A DNA stretch of 64,000 nucleotides, from positions 1 through 64,000 of IMG/VR virus record IMGVR_UViG_3300019888_000001, one strand, 5' to 3'. This document shows positions 2,880 to 23,242 of this stretch, piece by piece; positions within the stretch are counted from its first letter, which is position 1, and each line of letters begins with the position of its first letter. The notes under the pieces are model-generated. The model saw only the letters and a list, made by a program, of their open reading frames with translations. It did no database searches and was not told where the DNA came from. The position numbers were made by a program, and so were the translations under genes. The DNA is from a virus.

Positions 2880-3583
2880 ACGTTCCCGCAGTCACGCTGG
2901 ATTTTGCTACTGCGAGTGGCGATCCAAGCACCATTTCCGGATTGTTGGCGTGGTTCAACCCAAGCGGAATCTCGGGCACGAACGGTTCTCTGATGACTAC
3001 GTGGACCGACTCCGGCCCGACCGGGTATGTGTTGTCGCCGGTTAATGTTGGTCAAGGCCCTACAGTTTTGACTAACGGGCTTAACGGTTTTACAGTCGCA
3101 AATTCTGGTGGTGTCACAGGATTGGGCACATCCTCTGGTTTCAGTTTGTCGGCGGCGAATACTTGGACTTGTTTTTGTGTAGTTTATTTGGAAGCTTCTC
3201 CCGGCTATTATTGTGGTTTCAGGGGTGACGGGAATAACACTGGTGTCAGATTAGGTGCACACTCCGGCACCGACGGGGTTTATTCTTATGTGCTACCGAA
3301 TGTTATCGACAATCCTTCAGTCGAAGGGGTGACCTCGCATGTTTGGCATACCATCATTGCGAGTTCTAACGGAGGAGCAGAAAGTGTTTATGTGGATAAT
3401 GTGCAACTAACTTTAAGTGGCACACATTTGATGAATGCCCCAACATCAGCGTTTCAAATTTGTAGTTCTACCGTTCAAGCCTTTTTAGGAAAAATGGTTG
3501 AAATCGGCTGGTATGACCAGGCTCTAGGCAGCACAGATCGGGCAACTTTGTTCAATTACACTCATGGGAAATATGGGATTTAA
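2876..3583 (+). CDS. LamG/concanavalin-like virion protein
   Basis: 'GLLAWF..S.I...W.DS' N-terminus and 'GKMVEIGWYDQAL...R..L..Y..GKYGI' C-terminus, typical of phage LamG-like proteins. Confidence 0.6.
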   Translation: MNVPAVTLDFATASGDPSTISGLLAWFNPSGISGTNGSLMTTWTDSGPTGYVLSPVNVGQGPTVLTNGLNGFTVANSGGVTGLGTSSGFSLSAANTWTCFCVVYLEASPGYYCGFRGDGNNTGVRLGAHSGTDGVYSYVLPNVIDNPSVEGVTSHVWHTIIASSNGGAESVYVDNVQLTLSGTHLMNAPTSAFQICSSTVQAFLGKMVEIGWYDQALGSTDRATLFNYTHGKYGI

Positions 3584-13608: not shown

Positions 13609-14012
13609 GCGGGTATACCAGTAGAAGGCAACCCTTGCTTTAGCGCTTCCTGCGCCGTGGTAGGAGCTGGCCCTGGTGTAGTAGATTCTTCGCCTTCGGG
13701 TTCTTCGCCTTCGGATTCTGTTTCCTCTTCCTCTGGCTTAACGGCGGCGCCATCTACGGCAACCAAACACAAACTCTTACCATTTTCGCCGAGTTTTAAA
13801 GTTGCTAAAGCCTGAAATGTTTTGCCTCCGGCCTTTGCATCTTCGGGGGGTTGAAAATTGGCAGGGAGAGGAAACTCAATATACTTTCCTTCATCTTTAT
13901 CCTGATCCGCCGTGGGTTCCGGTTCGGAGGATGCATCTGGCAGATTAGGAGATCGGGGGGGAACAGCCGCGGCAATCATGCTAGCAGGGTCGGAAGGAGG
14001 TGTGTCAGCCAT
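13605..14012 (-). CDS. Acidic Pro-rich hypothetical protein
   Basis: ORF in the head module with its own promoter-like motif. Confidence 0.5.
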
Positions 14013-14087
14013 ACCTTATTGTAACAATAATTAAATTAAGAGCAAGAAATCATTTGCTTGAAAGGTAAATCGAGCGTATACTACTAC

Positions 14088-14507
14088 ATGGGAAAAATGA
14101 CTAAAGAATGGTGGAAGAAGTATACCAAAACACCCAAAAGGCAAGCTTGGACTAAAAAATATATCCGTTCTCCAAAACGCAAGGCTTTTGTTAAAAAATA
14201 TTGTAATCGACCCGAAGTTAAAGCGCGTCGTGCTCTTGAGCGACTGCGCCTTAAAGAAGCTTGCTTTAAACATTATTGTGCTGGAGAACCACATTGTATG
14301 TGCCCCGGTTGCCCCATAATTAATATAGTTTTGCTAGATCTAGATCATATTAATAATGATGGAGCAAAGCATCGCCGTGAGACAAACTGTAGAAGGGGTG
14401 TTCCTTTATATTCTTGGTTAAAAACCAGAAATTATCCACCAGGATTTCAAGTACTATGCTGTAATTGTCATAGAGCAAAAACAGCTAAAATTACATGTCA
14501 GCATTAG
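14088..14507 (+). CDS. HNH-type homing endonuclease (inverted)
   Basis: 'CMCPGC..LDLDHINNDG..HRR..VLCCNCH'. Confidence 0.85.
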   Translation: MGKMTKEWWKKYTKTPKRQAWTKKYIRSPKRKAFVKKYCNRPEVKARRALERLRLKEACFKHYCAGEPHCMCPGCPIINIVLLDLDHINNDGAKHRRETNCRRGVPLYSWLKTRNYPPGFQVLCCNCHRAKTAKITCQH

Positions 14508-14529
14508 CCCTTTAATGCGCAAGTATATT

Positions 14530-14898
14530 TTAATGTAAGTGCGTCGCCACACCGTGAAAATGATAAGGCACTTTCGCTTTATTCGCCATATATACATCAC
14601 AATTTCTCCAGGGGCGCTCAACCCACATATCCTGATGTAATTGTATAAATTTATCACTAATTTTAATACAACCCAAATATGGTGTACAGTCGCCGTCCTT
14701 ATACCCGCAACCACACCAAAGTTCAGAACAATTCCACATCTCTGTAAGATAATGAAATGAAGGAACAACATCGTGCTCAACATTTATAAACGTTAAACCT
14801 TCCTCCCATCGCTTTATAAAATAACGACTATAAGAAAGCTCATCAGTCATAGGCACAAAAATAGCATCTGGCACCGCGAGCAAGGTTCCTACCCGCAA
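14530..14898 (-). CDS. Small GT-A-like glycosyltransferase (possibly truncated)
   Basis: 'FINVEHDVVP' DxD-like motif, 'LGCIKIS', C-terminal 'VATHLH'. Confidence 0.45.
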   Translation of the reverse strand: MRVGTLLAVPDAIFVPMTDELSYSRYFIKRWEEGLTFINVEHDVVPSFHYLTEMWNCSELWCGCGYKDGDCTPYLGCIKISDKFIQLHQDMWVERPWRNCDVYMANKAKVPYHFHGVATHLH

Positions 14899-14921
14899 GT
14901 GCGTAAAGGGAACAAAAATTT

Positions 14922-15209
14922 TTATACGCCTTGAGGCGTGAATGTGGCTAATCCAACTTGAGCCTTACCATTTGGGCATATAGCGTGAATTTCGTCTCCT
15001 GGTTGAAGTTCTCCTTCAAGGACGTCTGACATATCAAAAGGTAAAGCACCAAGAAGTTCATAGGTTTTATTTGCTCTAACTAAAACCACAATGACAAGGT
15101 CGCTCGATGATAAGCGTCCAATAAATACCCACATTACAGGATCAGGAATAGTATAAATCAAAGTATCCGTGGGCCCAACCGTGACTACGTTTGAAGAGAA
15201 CGAAAACAT
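14922..15209 (-). CDS. Hypothetical protein downstream of the capsid gene
   Basis: 95 aa ORF preceded by a promoter-like motif. Confidence 0.45.
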   Translation of the reverse strand: MFSFSSNVVTVGPTDTLIYTIPDPVMWVFIGRLSSSDLVIVVLVRANKTYELLGALPFDMSDVLEGELQPGDEIHAICPNGKAQVGLATFTPQGV

Positions 15210-15283
15210 GTTATAAATATATTTGATTTTTATAATAAGGCAAGAAGCATTCGGGAAGAATACTACGTAACTTTTGTGTTATA

Positions 15284-15318
15284 AACCAAAAGTGCCCTGG
15301 GCCTTAACCCAGGGCACT
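15284..15318 (-). terminator. Intrinsic terminator after the major capsid gene
   Basis: 11-bp perfect stem AGTGCCCTGGG/CCCAGGGCACT (15291-15318) followed by TTTGGTTT on the - strand. Confidence 0.8.
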
Positions 15319-15338
15319 AATGTTAATTCGTTAAAGAA

Positions 15339-16602
15339 TTAGGATGTGCAGCCTGCGATCACTTGACCTGCGGGCGCGCAACGTAAGTGACGAACCGCAA
15401 ACGCCAGATCTTGCCGTTCTAACTTAATGCCATAGGCAAAAAGCGCGCGGAAGAATCCGATGTTACGATCGATGTTACATATGCGATCAGGAATGTTGCG
15501 CCACACAAACTCCCCCGCCCAACTGTATTCCGGCTCATATGTCATATTGCCGACGTTACCTTGGGGTTTAGGAATAAGTACGCGTAACACGTCGTCGTGG
15601 TAAATGAGCGTATCTTCATACGCAGCATTCGTGTAGATCGGGTCTACATTCCACTTGTTGCCGCGGGTTGCGGCAGACGCGACATACGGGTAGCGGCGCA
15701 CATACGCCCCAGCCGGGATGTCGAAGTGAGGCGGAAACTGGACCGCTGCAAAAATGAACCCGTGGTAAACTTTACCCCCGAGACCAATCTTGCTAACCAA
15801 AATGCCTTTGTCGTCTACGACAGACGCATATTGGAAGTCGTTCCTGTTGTTAGCATCTTGCTTCTTTAGCGCGTTGAAGGTGTAGGTAGAACCCACGGCC
15901 GTATAGACCGGGCTTCCATCTTCTACAACCGCTGTGGGCTTGATGCTTCCACCGTTGTATTGCAGTTGCTGGTGAATGTTTTCCAGAATACCAAACGTCA
16001 AGGGTGACGTAGGCGGTCTGTTACTATTCATCGTCGCCAATGTGGCGACATCCAGACTTGAATTCGCGGTGATGTAATTACCAACCGCGTTCATATACTC
16101 GTTTTGGTATGTGTTTGACCACACCCATTTGCTGTTTTCAGCAAGAACTCGAGTAACGTTCTTTACTTGATCCATGACTTGCCACTGAAACCGCAGATCG
16201 TCCAAACAGATATCAGGACTGTTAACAGCCGCTTTGTTAAGCGTGACTGTCAAAGTCGTAACACCGAATGAATCAATGTTGTGGTTTGCAGTGATGCCGC
16301 ATGCACCAGTACCTACTAGATTGTTCGAATCTCCACCCGAGCCGCCTACTAAAGACGAACTACGAGTTGCGAAAGATTGGAAAAACCCCGGAGCGTTAAC
16401 GTTATCTGTGATAATAGAACGCTCATAAATCGGATAAGTGTACTGAAACCCTGCACCGTCAAAGCCACGGCTCTTTAGGAAGCCGTTTAATATAAAAATC
16501 GCTATCTTGAATCATCTTAACTACATCATTCCTTACAAGAAGGGATAGATCTAGAAACAAATTTTCAAGGCTAGCGCATGTTTCTCCACTTGGACCTGCC
16601 AT
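15339..16602 (-). CDS. Major capsid protein, ~420 aa, requires a +1 frameshift at 16464-16458
   Basis: ATG at 16602 with upstream GAGGT; 47 codons end CTT-TGA; the +1 frame continues GAC-GGT-GCA.. without a stop to 15339; position after portal and scaffold, followed by a terminator; 'SWAGEFVWRNI' C-terminal capsid-like motif. Confidence 0.75.
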
Positions 16603-16739
16603 GATTTTATATACCTCATATAAAATTTTTACTGAAGAAATTCCTACTACAATAGTAGGCTTCAGTCTTTCCCGGGAGCGAATTTCCGGGCGAACATTTA
16701 ACGATGGCGCGTTATGGCCGCGTTCTCTATGCCGATAAC

Positions 16740-16768
16740 TACTTACGACACAGGATAATGAGTGTCAA
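16740..16768 (-). promoter_or_regulatory. Sigma70-like promoter for the capsid gene with a structured 5' UTR
   Basis: TTGACA-N17-TAAGTA on the - strand; hairpin ACTGAAG..CCTACTA-CAA-TAGTAGG-CTTCAGT at ~16631-16666. Confidence 0.5.
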
Positions 16769-17153
16769 GTAATTTTTTATGAGGACAAACCCCGTAAGCT
16801 CCGATAGCCTGATTGCAGTTATGACATAGCACTCTATAGCCGGACGGCCAGTTACGAACTCTAAGCCAGACATAAAAATTCTTTCCACCGGGGTTATTAA
16901 TTTCCTTACGATGCTGTTTTCCGCCTCCATTGATATGATCAATAGCTAAAAACTCAATCATGTTTTCTCCACAACATGCACACATAGGAGGATCGCCTCC
17001 ATAATGGCTGAAGCATTCGGCTTTTAACTTTAAATACCAACGCCTATGAACCGCTTTACCTTTTAGAGATTGCCGGTATTTGCGAATAGACGCCTTACCT
17101 TTTTCAGATTGTTCCCACTTTTTGGCGGCTCTTTTATGCGCTTCTGTGCTCAT
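16743..17153 (-). CDS. HNH-type homing endonuclease
   Basis: 'CACCGE..IDHINGGG..HR..VLCHNCN'. Confidence 0.85.
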   Translation of the reverse strand: MSTEAHKRAAKKWEQSEKGKASIRKYRQSLKGKAVHRRWYLKLKAECFSHYGGDPPMCACCGENMIEFLAIDHINGGGKQHRKEINNPGGKNFYVWLRVRNWPSGYRVLCHNCNQAIGAYGVCPHKKLLDTHYPVS

Positions 17154-17194
17154 GGTTTACATTACCACAAACCAGTACAATTTGTCAACAGAAA

Positions 17195-17371
17195 TCAGTG
17201 CTTCCAGGATCGCGCAACTTTGGCAAAATTGGCTCTCTTGCGCACTGCCGGGTCGGTCGAAGCCAGACCATGCATAATCTGGTCCATCGTAAGCTTCTTC
17301 CCTTTCTTGACCCCAAGATCACGATGAAGCCGGTCTTCGTGAGATTTCTTAATATGAATCCCGGATGCCAT
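17195..17371 (-). CDS. Small basic phage protein (58 aa, not in the ORF track)
   Basis: MASGIHIKKSHEDRLHRDLGVKKG..VRKRANFAKVARSWKH; TAATG overlap with the upstream ORF. Confidence 0.65.
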   Translation of the reverse strand: MASGIHIKKSHEDRLHRDLGVKKGKKLTMDQIMHGLASTDPAVRKRANFAKVARSWKH

Positions 17372-17481
17372 TACTTCTTCTGAAACTTAGCTTTGAGATA
17401 GGCAACACCAGCGGCTATTTGGGTTGACCCTAAATACCCGGCAGCAACACCTATAATTAGACCTAAGATAAAACCAATCAT
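17371..17481 (-). CDS. Small membrane protein (36 aa, not in the ORF track)
   Basis: MIGFILGLIIGVAAGYLG..YLKAKFQKK; similar to 30911-31048. Confidence 0.55.
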   Translation of the reverse strand: MIGFILGLIIGVAAGYLGSTQIAAGVAYLKAKFQKK

Positions 17482-17492
17482 ACACTACTCTA

Positions 17493-17873
17493 TTACCTAG
17501 GAAGCGCCCCGTCAAGTTTGGACTTCAGCATCTCAGCTGCCGCAGCCCTGGCGCAACCGCAGTTACAATTAAAGCACAAAACTCGCAGTTCGTCGGGAAA
17601 CTTATTTTTAACCAAATAAAAATACTGATCGCCGCCTCTAGTTCGTCTTTTTGCGCTTCCGCCACCATTTATGTGATCTAAAGTCAACCAAAGCATATTA
17701 GAAGTTCGACACCCGCATTCACAAGAACAACGAGGAGTATTGCCTCCATAATGACGGAAACAAGCAAGTTTGCGTAGTAAATAACTTTTTTTATTTGAAG
17801 CTTGCCTTTTGGCTTTTGTAAGTGGATTACGCCAGCGCAAAAGACCTTTTAAACGATAATAGTTTTTTGTCAT
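17493..17873 (-). CDS. HNH-type homing endonuclease fused to a copy of the scaffold C-terminus
   Basis: 'CSCECGC..LDHINGGG..VLCFNCN', then AAEMLKSKLDGALPR. Confidence 0.85.
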   Translation of the reverse strand: MTKNYYRLKGLLRWRNPLTKAKRQASNKKSYLLRKLACFRHYGGNTPRCSCECGCRTSNMLWLTLDHINGGGSAKRRTRGGDQYFYLVKNKFPDELRVLCFNCNCGCARAAAAEMLKSKLDGALPR

Positions 17874-19202
17874 TTATTTTGGAAGAACCCCCTCCAATTT
17901 AGCTTTCAACATCTCAGCCGCGGTCTTATAGGCAGTTGGTTGCGGAATTTCTTCTGGAACATTTCCCGCGCCAGCGGCTGGCGTTCCGCCACGAAGTTTA
18001 GTCAATTGGTCATCCAGCGTAACATTCTTCTGGTGTAAGTCACTTACCATGTTCAAAAGAAGGGGAAAAACTTCGGCCTTATAGAAACGAGTCGCCAGTT
18101 CCTCGTTAGATAATGATGCCACATCAACAGATTGAACTCTCTCATGAGCATCGACGACCATTTTATCCCAGCCTTCGTCCCCGGTCTTTTTGAATACCGG
18201 AAGATCGGTTGAGAGTTTATTATACGACGCGTCTAGAGCCGTGACCCAATCTTCATGGAACTTGGCCGTTTGGCTTTTCTCTGCCGCTTCGCGAGCTTTT
18301 TGCATTTCCGCGAACTTACCGGCGGCGCCATCGATAGTGGATTGCTTAAGTTCTAACAACCGGTCTTGTTCGCTCAGCAAATGATCAAACCTGTTAATAT
18401 CCAGGCGGTTAAAATTTGCCGACAGTTCTGCTAATTTATCGCTCCTCTTATTAGGGTCTGGGTCGGAAAGAGCCGCCTGTAAATCACCAGGGGCAATCTC
18501 ATACTTCTTAGCCAGCGCTGTTAGGGCATTTTGAGCGGTCTTAAGAGGCGATGTAATTCTTTTCTTAAAGTCGTCAGTAGCTTCAACACGAGTAACTGAA
18601 AGTTCGTCTTCATAACGTTTAATCGTTTCCTCCATCTCGGTGACCTTAGAAGCGTCTACCGCAGTTGCTTTCTTCCTGAAGTCGTCGCGTTCTGCTTCAA
18701 GAGCTTTGATCTTACCTTCCGCAATAGCCAGGTCTCCGCGCACAGCTTTGAAAGCTGAACCAGCCTTTACAGTCATCATCTCTTCCGCTTTATCTAAAGC
18801 AGCTTTGGTAAGCTTTTCGGCCGGCGTTGGTCCAGTCGGCCCAGTTGCCGCTGGCTCAGGAGCGCCTGTAGGACCGGTTGCTGCCGGTTGCGTAGCGCCG
18901 GTAGGACCTGTGGCCGCAGGTTGGGGAGTTCCTGTTGGGCCTGTGGGCGGTTTGGGTAAAGAGACCGGACTTGGAATTACAATCGCCGAGGTGGATGGGG
19001 GAGCAGGCGTTGGAGCCGGTGTAGGAACCGGAGCAGGTGGCGTAATTGCCGTAGCGGCATTATCCACGGGGGGCTGCGCTCTGCGCATAACAAAATCTGG
19101 GTCCATTACACCATGCGGAAACAATTTGTCGAGTTCGGCACGGATTTTGGTGGGAGCCTGACCTTCGCCGGGGATTACAGTAGGAGCGGGGTTTTCGGCC
19201 AT
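17874..19202 (-). CDS. Capsid scaffolding protein
   Basis: Pro/Thr-rich N-terminus with ATGPTG repeats, long coiled coil, located between portal and capsid genes. Confidence 0.65.
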   Translation of the reverse strand: MAENPAPTVIPGEGQAPTKIRAELDKLFPHGVMDPDFVMRRAQPPVDNAATAITPPAPVPTPAPTPAPPSTSAIVIPSPVSLPKPPTGPTGTPQPAATGPTGATQPAATGPTGAPEPAATGPTGPTPAEKLTKAALDKAEEMMTVKAGSAFKAVRGDLAIAEGKIKALEAERDDFRKKATAVDASKVTEMEETIKRYEDELSVTRVEATDDFKKRITSPLKTAQNALTALAKKYEIAPGDLQAALSDPDPNKRSDKLAELSANFNRLDINRFDHLLSEQDRLLELKQSTIDGAAGKFAEMQKAREAAEKSQTAKFHEDWVTALDASYNKLSTDLPVFKKTGDEGWDKMVVDAHERVQSVDVASLSNEELATRFYKAEVFPLLLNMVSDLHQKNVTLDDQLTKLRGGTPAAGAGNVPEEIPQPTAYKTAAEMLKAKLEGVLPK

Positions 19203-22071: not shown

Positions 22072-22506
22072 TTAGAACACAACTTTAGGTTTATGGTTAA
22101 GGGAAACCCCTTTTTGAGAGTTTTCTTTACTAAAAATGATCTGGAGGTTTTCTGCCGAATGGGCGCCTCCCTTAGCTAAGGGAATAATATGATCAACCGC
22201 AACATCAAAACGCTTACGCAATTCCTTAGCCCGAGCATAAATCTTTTTAATAGCTTCCACATTTCCTATGGTAGCTTTTTGCCGCCTTGCTCTACGTTTT
22301 GCTTCATGGAAAGTAAATAGCTCGCTATGCCTTCTTTTCCAGGCACTCCAATATTCAGGGTTAGCGTTTCTAAATTTTCTGCTTGCTTCACATGCATGGT
22401 TAGGAAAAGCTAATCGAATTAAGCGAGCGTATTCCCTATATACATCAGGAAATTTGGCCATACGAATCTTGTAATATTCTTTTTCTTTCTCAACTCTGGT
22501 TTTCAT
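22072..22506 (-). CDS. HNH homing endonuclease
   Basis: 'VDHIIPLAKGGAHSAENLQ'; close paralog of 7568-8104. Confidence 0.9.
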   Translation of the reverse strand: MKTRVEKEKEYYKIRMAKFPDVYREYARLIRLAFPNHACEASRKFRNANPEYWSAWKRRHSELFTFHEAKRRARRQKATIGNVEAIKKIYARAKELRKRFDVAVDHIIPLAKGGAHSAENLQIIFSKENSQKGVSLNHKPKVVF

Positions 22507-23242
22507 ATAAGGTATAAATACTCCCATCTTTACAGCCGTGCACGAGCACAGCTTCTTCTGGAATTGGGACACTATAGTCGTGATAGTTAACAGGATCCAC
22601 GGCGTCCATAACAATTTGATTTTTTTCGTTTCGACGATATCTGCAGGTTCCCCACCTATGGGCAAGCAAGTTTGTGTCGTGAGTTTCTGGAACTACCTCT
22701 TCTCCAGTCCAGGTATCCCAGCTAATCGTTGCGGGCACACTTTGAATCATTTTACACCGCCGCATATAATCGGCAGGGTACGTCGCGACCCCCATTAAGT
22801 GGTGCCCTTTTTCAAACCGCGCTCCAGTTTCAAGATTCTTATAACGAGAAATATTAATGTGGCCCATATATGGTTTTTTAGATTGGGCGTATTCTTTTTC
22901 CCAGGTTTCTAACCAACCTGGCGCGAATGGAAAAACATCGCTTTCTAACCAAAACCACGGAAGAGTATTGTCTTTTGTTTCCAAATAGTCTGCAGTAGCT
23001 ATAAACATAGAATTTGGCCCAGCCGGCCACGCTTCATCTTCAAACTCAGGAACCGTGAAGTCTACTTTTTTGAACCCTTTCGCGAGAATCGCTACAATCT
23101 CCGGAGCGTCCAACTTTACGCGCCAAGATGACACCACAAGAGCTTCGTGATCCTGCATACCGCCAAGTTTAACAATTCGTTCTGCTAACGCTCGGGCAAG
23201 CATGAAGTCGCCATAGCTAACGGGAAAAACCGGAAGTATCAT
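22490..23242 (-). CDS. Putative GT-A-like glycosyltransferase
   Basis: 'WPAGPN..WFWLESD..GVATYP..WD..VHGCK' motif layout. Confidence 0.5.
   Translation of the reverse strand: MILPVFPVSYGDFMLARALAERIVKLGGMQDHEALVVSSWRVKLDAPEIVAILAKGFKKVDFTVPEFEDEAWPAGPNSMFIATADYLETKDNTLPWFWLESDVFPFAPGWLETWEKEYAQSKKPYMGHINISRYKNLETGARFEKGHHLMGVATYPADYMRRCKMIQSVPATISWDTWTGEEVVPETHDTNLLAHRWGTCRYRRNEKNQIVMDAVDPVNYHDYSVPIPEEAVLVHGCKDGSIYTLYENQS

Follow-up and report, generated by a model that had tools for sequence, protein, structure and literature searches.

The +1 frameshift site of prfB, the gene for release factor 2 (RF2), consists of a few closely spaced elements. As set out in sections of a 2025 mBio article (PMC12421855), its consensus places AGGGGG 3 nucleotides (nt) upstream of CUU, and CUU-U, the stop codon UGA, and the C that follows it form the conserved core. 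The same core is given in section 29 of a 2016 Nucleic Acids Research paper (PMC5009743), which also treats the "corrective" frameshifting of insertions and deletions (indels) as a recognized class. A different arrangement is known from phage T4, where, according to portions of a preprint (bioRxiv 10.1101/2022.08.31.505936), an interruption in gene 60 beside the nuclease gene mobA blocks self-cleavage, and phages that are 96-99% identical lack both the nuclease gene and the interruption. Here we describe a viral locus that can be compared with both systems. In IMG/VR virus record IMGVR_UViG_3300019888_000001, a gene that predicted fold and gene order support as a major capsid gene is broken after 47 codons by the heptamer CTT-TGA-C, and we favor the view that its protein would still be made by a +1 slip on this site. 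The window is the stretch of DNA that was analyzed, which comprises the first 64,000 bases of this 82,110-base record. CheckV rates the genome as complete, a 21-nt end repeat marks it as a circular assembly, and its content of guanine plus cytosine is 46%. The sequencing runs that hold the virus are soil metagenomes.

The interrupted gene lies on the minus strand, and its parts have the following window coordinates:

16462..16602, minus strand: open reading frame 1 (ORF1) of the capsid gene, 47 codons; all 47 residues are the same as the N-terminus of P0126, an uninterrupted relative of 420 amino acids (aa)
16458..16464, minus strand: the CTT-TGA-C heptamer, with CTT at 16464-16462, TGA at 16461-16459, and C at 16458
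15339..16460, minus strand: ORF2 of the capsid gene, in the +1 frame; 373 codons from GAC at 16460-16458 onward, with the stop at 15341-15339

Read from the ATG at 16602, ORF1 comprises 47 sense codons (MAGPSG...KEPWL) and terminates at the in-frame TGA, and the extra T is one of the three at 16463-16461. No ATG, GTG, or TTG occurs in ORF2 for 69 codons, the first being the TTG at 16253. The same frame is closed upstream by a stop at 16512-16514, from which point to 16253 there is likewise none of these start codons, and the GTG and TTG located beside the heptamer fall in the third frame. Because CUU-U is in the zero frame with the ATG at 16602 and is followed by an in-frame UGA and then by C, the core elements of the prfB site are present.

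The heptamer alone is at chance level. CTTTGAC is found six times in the window versus 8.68 +/- 3.01 times in shuffled sequences, and 88 of the 100 shuffles hold at least six copies. What exceeds chance is its placement, in frame and exactly where a protein that is continuous in relatives switches frame. The break coincides with the single in-frame CTT GAC of the whole gene, and an in-frame CTT-TGA-C is created by just one of the 3772 distinct single-base insertions that are possible in the gene.

The extra T is confirmed as real DNA and is not an assembly slip. A Logan contig of run X1 (46,450 nt, depth 16.9) matches positions 15300-17200 without differences or gaps; this run is the probable source sample, and hence the contig is independent only as an assembly. 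A 270-nt contig (depth 2.3) of run X3, which comes from another sample and another study, spans 16371-16640 and likewise has neither differences nor gaps. The contig of run X5 does not cover the site. In run X4, which holds a strain that is 95-99% similar, the contig stops at 16462 with one unaligned letter, a weak hint that would fit an allele without the third T as well as a branch in the assembly graph and that shows neither.

Predicted proteins carry the same signature. A protein search with ORF1, limited to proteins of 25-83 aa, returned two clusters, one of which unites the window's 47-aa protein with P0121 (47 aa, carrying the change L19K) from a 72,185-nt JGI contig. The other holds P0122 (50 aa, with a different N-terminus) from a 1,065-nt ENA contig, and both P0121 and P0122 end in ...KEPWL. 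The downstream capsid call of the 72,185-nt contig is likewise found only in truncated form (P0125), and downstream truncation recurs in the ENA and Logan gene calls of an 81,928-nt assembly (P0130). Judging from these proteins, at least three haplotypes appear to stop right after Leu47, most simply by way of the same T at the Leu-Asp pair.

We compared 64 loci of relatives (L001-L065 except L004, which is from the window; three contigs are in the set twice, and one is a JGI twin), and the site is present in 63 of them, with W-x-D-G encoded in one frame in all 63. The codon at the Leu position varies widely (ATG 29, CTC 11, GTG 8, GTC 5, GTT 4, TTG 3, CTT 2, TTA 1), and none of the 63 loci carries the CTT-TGA-C cassette. 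Ten of the 12 homologs that we fetched are uninterrupted, reading either ...KEPWLDG... or ...KDKWVDG..., and the remaining two are a downstream fragment and a protein, P0001, that starts at the junction. The 90% cluster of P0001 includes two uninterrupted 420-aa proteins, P0126 and P0129, which are 95-97% identical to the joined window protein. The joined protein differs from P0126 at 12 of 420 positions, none of them in ORF1, and from P0129 at 21 of 420; P0002 is also uninterrupted. Scans of viral and metagenome contigs with protein patterns yielded only relatives at the 62-66% level, and a degenerate pattern of the junction matched no stretch in the viral contigs.

A sister allele is broken at nearly the same place. 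The 80-aa P0123 reads ...KEPWLDG before leaving the frame, whereas P0001, which is 94% identical, begins MARRVAGYQY.... These two proteins are encoded on Logan contigs of 5,134 nt (P0001) and 1,571 nt (P0123) and fit as overlapping frames of one DNA. From back-translation we deduce a 2-nt insertion approximately 8 nt after the position of the window's T, which would read ...GAC GGG TTG CAG G.... Four residues divide the clade into two capsid haplogroups. Haplogroup A (L19, K221, I374, Q397) contains the window and the intact P0126, and haplogroup B (K19, R221, Q374, T397) contains the 72,185-nt contig, the intact P0129, and the 2-nt allele. Because the T insertion is present on both haplogroups, it either arose more than once or was moved by a short conversion tract.

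ORF2 itself is well preserved. Relative to the X4 strain it carries 16 listed substitutions (20 are reported) in 14 codons, of which 10 are synonymous and four are non-synonymous, a pattern that points to purifying selection. The joined protein retains all 55 invariant columns and 77 of the 85 near-invariant columns of a family alignment, and P0126 is the same as the window at all eight near-invariant positions that depart. This alignment consists of 86 sequences, namely P0126, P0129, and 84 of the 120 listed homologs, with fragments and some near-duplicates omitted; a search of a large protein collection had found 153 homologs of ORF2 with an expectation (E) value of 0.001 or less among 5026 candidates. 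All 86 sequences have W46, G49, and G51, and D48 is present in 85; position 47 is L in 60. The stretch from W46 to G51 is the most conserved of the N-terminal region, and the break falls in a predicted turn between two N-arm strands of the structural model. Because W46, D48, G49, and G51 are invariant or nearly so, an exact repair is needed at the junction.

Neither capsid piece matches a Pfam or PHROG family at E<=0.01, and blastn and tblastn searches of a phage collection returned no match to them, so the assignment as a capsid gene is based on fold and gene order only. An AlphaFold2 model of P0126, built on the 86-row alignment, has a mean predicted local distance difference test score (pLDDT) of 71.6 and a predicted template modeling score (pTM) of 0.72. 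Its best Foldseek match in PDB is the phage N4 capsid (9e99_A, E 1.5e-11, template modeling score 0.49-0.52). There are 189 PDB matches at E<=0.001, those listed being capsid entries, and matches in BFVD belong to the N4-gp56 family and to other major capsid proteins. Upstream, in order, lie a large terminase gene (phrog_2, E 2.9e-8), an ORF of 800 aa (the size of a portal protein), an ORF of 132 aa, and a scaffold-like ORF of 442 aa:

17874..19202, minus strand: scaffold-like gene, 442 aa, the upstream neighbor in the head module; homologs that are 25-46% identical lie directly upstream of the capsid gene in relatives

The scaffold-like gene has no family match and is named from its position and composition only. 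Tail-fiber genes follow the capsid gene, and the order is the same in relatives. Together, fold and gene order support a predicted HK97-fold (N4 gp56-like) major capsid gene. At two relatives' loci, L061 and L062 (2501-4006), about 90 extra aa separate capsid residues 297 and 298 in an open frame of 528 aa; they may be an added surface domain.

How would such a gene be expressed? The reading that we favor, and to which we give about an even chance, is that a real, lineage-specific insertion is rescued by +1 frameshifting on a bare shifty stop. One base has been inserted between codons 47 and 48 of the major capsid gene, changing TT to TTT and thereby converting CTT GAC to CTT-TGA-C, a "shifty stop" of the RF2 type. 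With tRNA-Leu on CUU in the ribosomal P site and the weak stop UGA-C in the A site, a fraction of ribosomes would slip by +1 from CUU to UUU and then read GAC, and the 373 further codons would complete a normal 420-aa protein with its invariant W-L-D-G. ORF1 and ORF2 joined in this way do make 420 aa, the length of the uninterrupted P0126 and P0129. The process would be an instance of corrective (compensatory) frameshifting of a recent and polymorphic indel, not of a conserved regulatory device. We propose that the allele owes its persistence to being the only insertion in the gene to hit the best-known +1 site. Because near-identical relatives lack the break, we regard it as a recent tolerated lesion rather than an evolved switch, and any dependence on RF2 would be a side effect and not a conserved design.

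The initial annotation of this DNA had anticipated much of this account. Its anatomy of the minus strand, from the ATG at 16602 through CTT-TGA-C at 16464-16458 to the 373 codons without a start until 16253, was exact on re-reading. Its naming of the gene as that of the major capsid protein is borne out by the predicted HK97/N4 gp56-type fold together with the order terminase, portal-sized ORF, scaffold-like ORF, capsid. The slip on CUU-U followed by GAC that it described would yield W-L-D-G exactly as in uninterrupted relatives.

Synthesis of the capsid protein by a +1 slip appears the most likely route of expression, given that ORF2 has no other evident one and that the gene is otherwise undamaged. 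As a regular stop of this genome, TGA ends 29 of 85 long ORFs (six of them as TGA-C), and TAA ends 45. Reassignment of TGA can be ruled out on this count and also because homology continues in the +1 frame and not in the zero frame. A suppressor or frameshift tRNA supplied by the phage is ruled out as well, since the sole tRNA in the 82,110-nt genome is tRNA-Met (CAT). Thus neither reassignment nor a phage-encoded suppressor explains expression.

Two hairpins lie on the same strand:

16467..16486, minus strand: hairpin of 7 base pairs with a 6-nt loop, ending 2 nt before CTT, present in the centroid structure
15291..15318, minus strand: intrinsic-terminator-like hairpin of 12 pairs followed by a run of T, located after the capsid gene

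The first is not retained in the DNA of relatives and is probably incidental. Rfam models had no match at E<=0.1 in the region 13800-18200 of the window (locus L004). The initial annotation had also credited the capsid gene with a promoter of its own, a claim that found no support: a consensus scan of the minus strand from 16603 to 17486 found no promoter-like site, and the region has a weak terminator-like hairpin at 16659-16643 alone.

Several observations weigh against frameshift rescue. As the initial annotation correctly noted, the SD (Shine-Dalgarno) stimulator of prfB is absent: the sequence before the site reads AAAGAG-CCGTGG-CTT, which puts the purine run AAAGAG 6 nt from CTT. The 131 nt around the site have no excess of folding (z = +1.06), with 178 of 200 shuffles at least as stable. 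The contigs are silent on any intact minority allele that might co-exist in the sample. The sister 2-nt allele has no slippery site, and its downstream frame has its own ATG. A further frame change is found in two contigs of another sample (L002/L063 and L003/L056, near positions 3090-3140), where the capsid frame shifts between residues 79 and 98, likely through a 1-nt deletion in a Pro codon. It too is without a slippery site, and there is no HNH gene within 2.5-3 kilobases. Because broken alleles of this kind occur without any slippery site, a broken frame in a metagenomic contig need not imply recoding. L002 and L003 differ by a second frame change, in the homolog of the 132-aa ORF, and so their sample may be indel-prone.

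The expected yield is another difficulty. Each virion requires hundreds of copies of its capsid protein, so a low frameshift yield would be costly. In the sections of the mBio article that deal with the full prfB motif, about 6% shifting is reported for Mycobacterium smegmatis and a similarly low value for the SD-poor Flavobacterium johnsoniae, and changing any element of the motif cuts its efficiency (PMC12421855). The missing SD may nevertheless be uninformative, because the ORFs of this phage are not enriched in such sequences. An SD-like 4-mer at -18..-4 precedes 11 of 87 first-ATG ORFs and is found in 14 of 87 in an internal control window, a crude count with uncurated starts that suggests a host using few SDs. 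The C-terminal fragment of a capsid relative lies on a contig binned as a metagenome-assembled genome of Cyanobium (L007); neither this contig nor the SD counts fix the host.

The head module also contains HNH-type genes, two of which stand between the scaffold-like gene and the capsid gene:

16743..17153, minus strand: free-standing HNH endonuclease gene, 136 aa (phrog_2255, E 1.3e-6), 140 nt upstream of the capsid start
17493..17873, minus strand: second HNH-like gene, 126 aa, directly after the scaffold-like gene; 45% identical to the 136-aa HNH protein over 92 residues

The 136-aa protein is a candidate homing endonuclease, whereas the 126-aa ORF has no PHROG or Pfam match at the thresholds used. 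The C-terminus of the latter shares 11 of 15 residues with that of the scaffold-like protein (17493-17540 compared with 17874-17921), which is consistent with an HNH element that invaded the 3' end of the scaffold-like gene and supplied a replacement end. Between scaffold and capsid genes, 54 of the 56 relatives' loci have no such HNH gene. The best homologs of the 136-aa protein are P0135 (70% identical, on a 72,185-nt JGI contig) and P0136 (67%, its longest contig being one of 5,134 nt from Logan), and these contigs have the same nucleotide counts and sources as those that carry the second T allele and P0001. Such orthologs are 65-71% identical to one another but 43-45% identical to the paralogs in the window. 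The contigs of 4,312, 1,436, and 25,643 nt that carry the intact P0126, P0129, and P0002 hold none of the best 120 of 295 HNH matches, two of these contigs being short.

In total, four HNH-type genes occur in or beside the head module, at 14058-14507 (plus strand), 16743-17153 (minus), 17493-17873 (minus), and 22072-22665 (minus). Three of them share 43-45% identity, and the fourth, which aligns over 12-23 residues only, matches several PHROG families of HNH nucleases and endonuclease VII. At 17195-17484 on the minus strand, between the HNH genes, are two small ORFs, one of 58 aa that starts MASGIHIKK and one of 36 aa that resembles a membrane helix. Among the relatives at 65-66% identity, L010 (2215-2540) and L009 (2230-2540), on IMG/VR contigs of 83,126 and 79,247 nt, have a conserved intervening sequence of roughly 200-220 nt that divides the 5' end of the capsid gene. 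It follows codon 15-20, with insertion points about 18 nt apart in the two loci. In L010, positions 2247-2444 match the full Rfam model of the group I intron (RF00028) at 40.5 bits (E 1.9e-7), which is under the gathering score of 50, and both loci have an HNH gene between scaffold and capsid genes.

These genes invite an addition to the frameshifting account, according to which the HNH enzyme cuts the stretch that encodes W-L-D-G in capsid genes that lack it, small insertions destroy its target and so shield their carriers, and recoding keeps the capsid protein in production. We consider this addition unlikely, though a number of observations lend it some weight. Two different insertions lie no more than about 10 nt apart in capsid genes whose proteins are 94-97% identical, as would be expected of a nuclease target with protective lesions, and the T allele is found on both haplogroups. 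An HNH ortholog accompanies the window and each of the two longest other contigs with a broken allele (72,185 and 5,134 nt), and none was seen on contigs with an intact allele among the best 120 of 295 matches. Measured against 54 of 56 relatives' loci, the HNH genes are inserted, and the neighboring one has visibly invaded the 3' end of the scaffold-like gene. In L009 and L010, an upstream HNH gene goes together with a group-I-intron-like insert located in this same 5' region of the capsid gene, and the T4 mobA/gene 60 precedent has the same geometry. Yet the contigs were equated by equal nucleotide counts only, two contigs with an intact allele are short and may stop before the upstream region, and all broken alleles belong to one clade, so that the association may reflect shared ancestry. 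The HNH orthologs, at 65-71% identity, are far more diverged than the capsid proteins, which argues against a recent joint transfer. In addition, ORF1 is not diverged in protein from its intact relatives, and a search for a duplicated capsid 5' end elsewhere in the genome found none. By analogy with T4, the T and the 2-nt insertion might even be marks of self-immunity to the HNH enzyme, with the T allele surviving through RF2-type +1 frameshifting; this combined claim is also unlikely, and we hold it a shade more tentatively still.

A plainer explanation is that the insertion simply inactivates the capsid gene. The allele would then persist by co-infection with intact relatives or as a replicon that forms no particles, and CTT-TGA-C would be a by-product of T-run slippage at CTT GAC. 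We find this doubtful, but it stays a serious rival to frameshift rescue because broken capsid frames without recoding signals do occur. The same clade contains intact alleles (P0126 and P0129), two more capsid alleles with a broken frame have no slippery sites, the site has no stimulatory element, and a change of TT to TTT is the commonest kind of indel. Such a defect is harder to square with a T allele that is the consensus of a 17x contig and recurs in a second sample, with the presence of the break in three different haplotypes, and with a gene that has no other lesion, keeps 55 of 55 invariant residues, and has mostly synonymous substitutions. The chance of landing on the single in-frame CTT GAC, 1 in 3772, also speaks against it. 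Another reading, which builds on the initial annotation, is an evolved gate that would tie capsid synthesis to RF2 scarcity or to slow UGA termination late in infection. The site does reproduce the autoregulatory prfB core exactly, and the 29 TGA and 45 TAA stops among 85 long ORFs are all read by RF2. The comparative data contradict such a gate, which we judge very improbable: the relatives' frame is uninterrupted at all 63 loci with variable codons at the Leu position, the alignment proposed as a check found CTTTGAC conserved at W-L-D-G in none of them, twins that are 95-97% identical are intact, the clade is polymorphic for the site, and the SD stimulator is missing.

Improbable to the same degree is a genuinely split capsid, in which ORF1 (47 aa) and ORF2 are made as separate proteins through a non-canonical start or a restart after UGA. 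Placement of the break in a predicted turn between two N-arm strands would suit this idea, as would the ATG with which the downstream frame of the 2-nt allele begins (P0001, MARRV...). The window's ORF2 frame, however, has no ATG, GTG, or TTG from the stop at 16512-16514 to 16253, the adjacent GTG and TTG are in the third frame, and W46-G51 is highly conserved. We give the lowest probability of all to an error of sequencing or assembly over a true TGG CTT GAC, a concern that the initial annotation itself had raised. A single base in a short T run is a plausible place for an error, and other contigs of the family have frame changes that are possibly erroneous (L002 compared with L003). Nevertheless, the JGI record, the Logan contig of depth 16.9 from X1, and the X3 contig from another study all carry the T and agree with 0 differences and 0 gaps, the gene calls of the 81,928-nt assembly are truncated downstream as well (P0130), and ORF1 stops after the same residue in two more haplotypes.

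Should the T allele be expressed, it would represent a natural and obligatory +1 frameshift on CUU-UGA-C as a bare core, located outside prfB and lacking an SD stimulator. Its setting, a very-high-copy gene in a host that seemingly uses few SDs, would test what the core alone delivers and to what extent an essential viral gene can be rescued by corrective frameshifting. Without expression, this is an ordinary defective allele in a metagenome. The limited literature that was covered describes neither a CUU-UGA +1 site in the capsid gene of a phage nor the pairing of a homing endonuclease with +1 frameshifting.

The closest parallel for the site itself is prfB. As described in parts of two sources (PMC12421855 and PMC5009743), both have CUU in the P site, CUUU with an in-frame UGA, C after the stop, and Leu-Asp across the shift. 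In both, a short first ORF (47 codons here, 25 in Escherichia coli) precedes the bulk of the protein in the +1 frame. The capsid site differs in lacking an AGGGGG-type SD 3 nt upstream and in not being conserved among orthologs, and there is no feedback loop because the product is not RF2. According to the sections of the PRFect preprint that treat this motif (PMC10274946), all +1 entries with a CUU-stop motif in RECODE are prfB genes, and a capsid case would therefore be new to that catalog.

Other described systems share single features with the locus. Among the cases covered in excerpts of PMC5009743, the herpesvirus thymidine kinase G-run mutants ("savior indel") are comparable in that an indel in a needed gene is compensated by ribosomal slippage, the unshifted product being of no use; in the capsid gene, the indel produces a shifty stop instead of a longer homopolymer, and a high output is needed. 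The same source describes a +1 frameshift on a P-site codon in the major capsid gene (cps) of Listeria phage PSA, as here, and -1 frameshifts in the major capsid genes of T7/T3 (gene 10) and phage A2. Those are conserved events at the 3' end through which a minority of subunits gain a C-terminal extension, whereas the shift in the window's gene would be obligatory, near the 5' end, and not conserved. In mycobacteriophage Corndog, an HNH gene is inserted next to the tape-measure gene, whose canonical start is lost, and the portion of the report that concerns it states that the protein is made at a normal level by a non-canonical, unresolved route (PMC4351075). Both the gene and the lesion, loss of a start codon, are different from those in the capsid case.

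T4 mobA/gene 60 offers a match in layout. As presented in portions of the preprint cited above (bioRxiv 10.1101/2022.08.31.505936), an HNH gene lies directly upstream of an essential ORF, as it does here, and the ORF is interrupted about 46 codons in (47 here) by a sequence that starts with an in-frame stop. The T4 interruption is 50 nt long, compared with one base here and two in the sister allele, and the capsid site has no take-off and landing codons, stem-loop, or nascent-peptide signal. Here the nuclease gene does not itself split a host gene. Should the homing link be confirmed, the gene 60 idea that recoding protects a nuclease target would be extended to a minimal form. Together with the intron-like insert of L009 and L010, the two small insertions would then provide three ways of hiding a homing target in one essential capsid gene, and the T allele would be the one-nucleotide counterpart of the T4 mobA/gene 60 bypass cassette.

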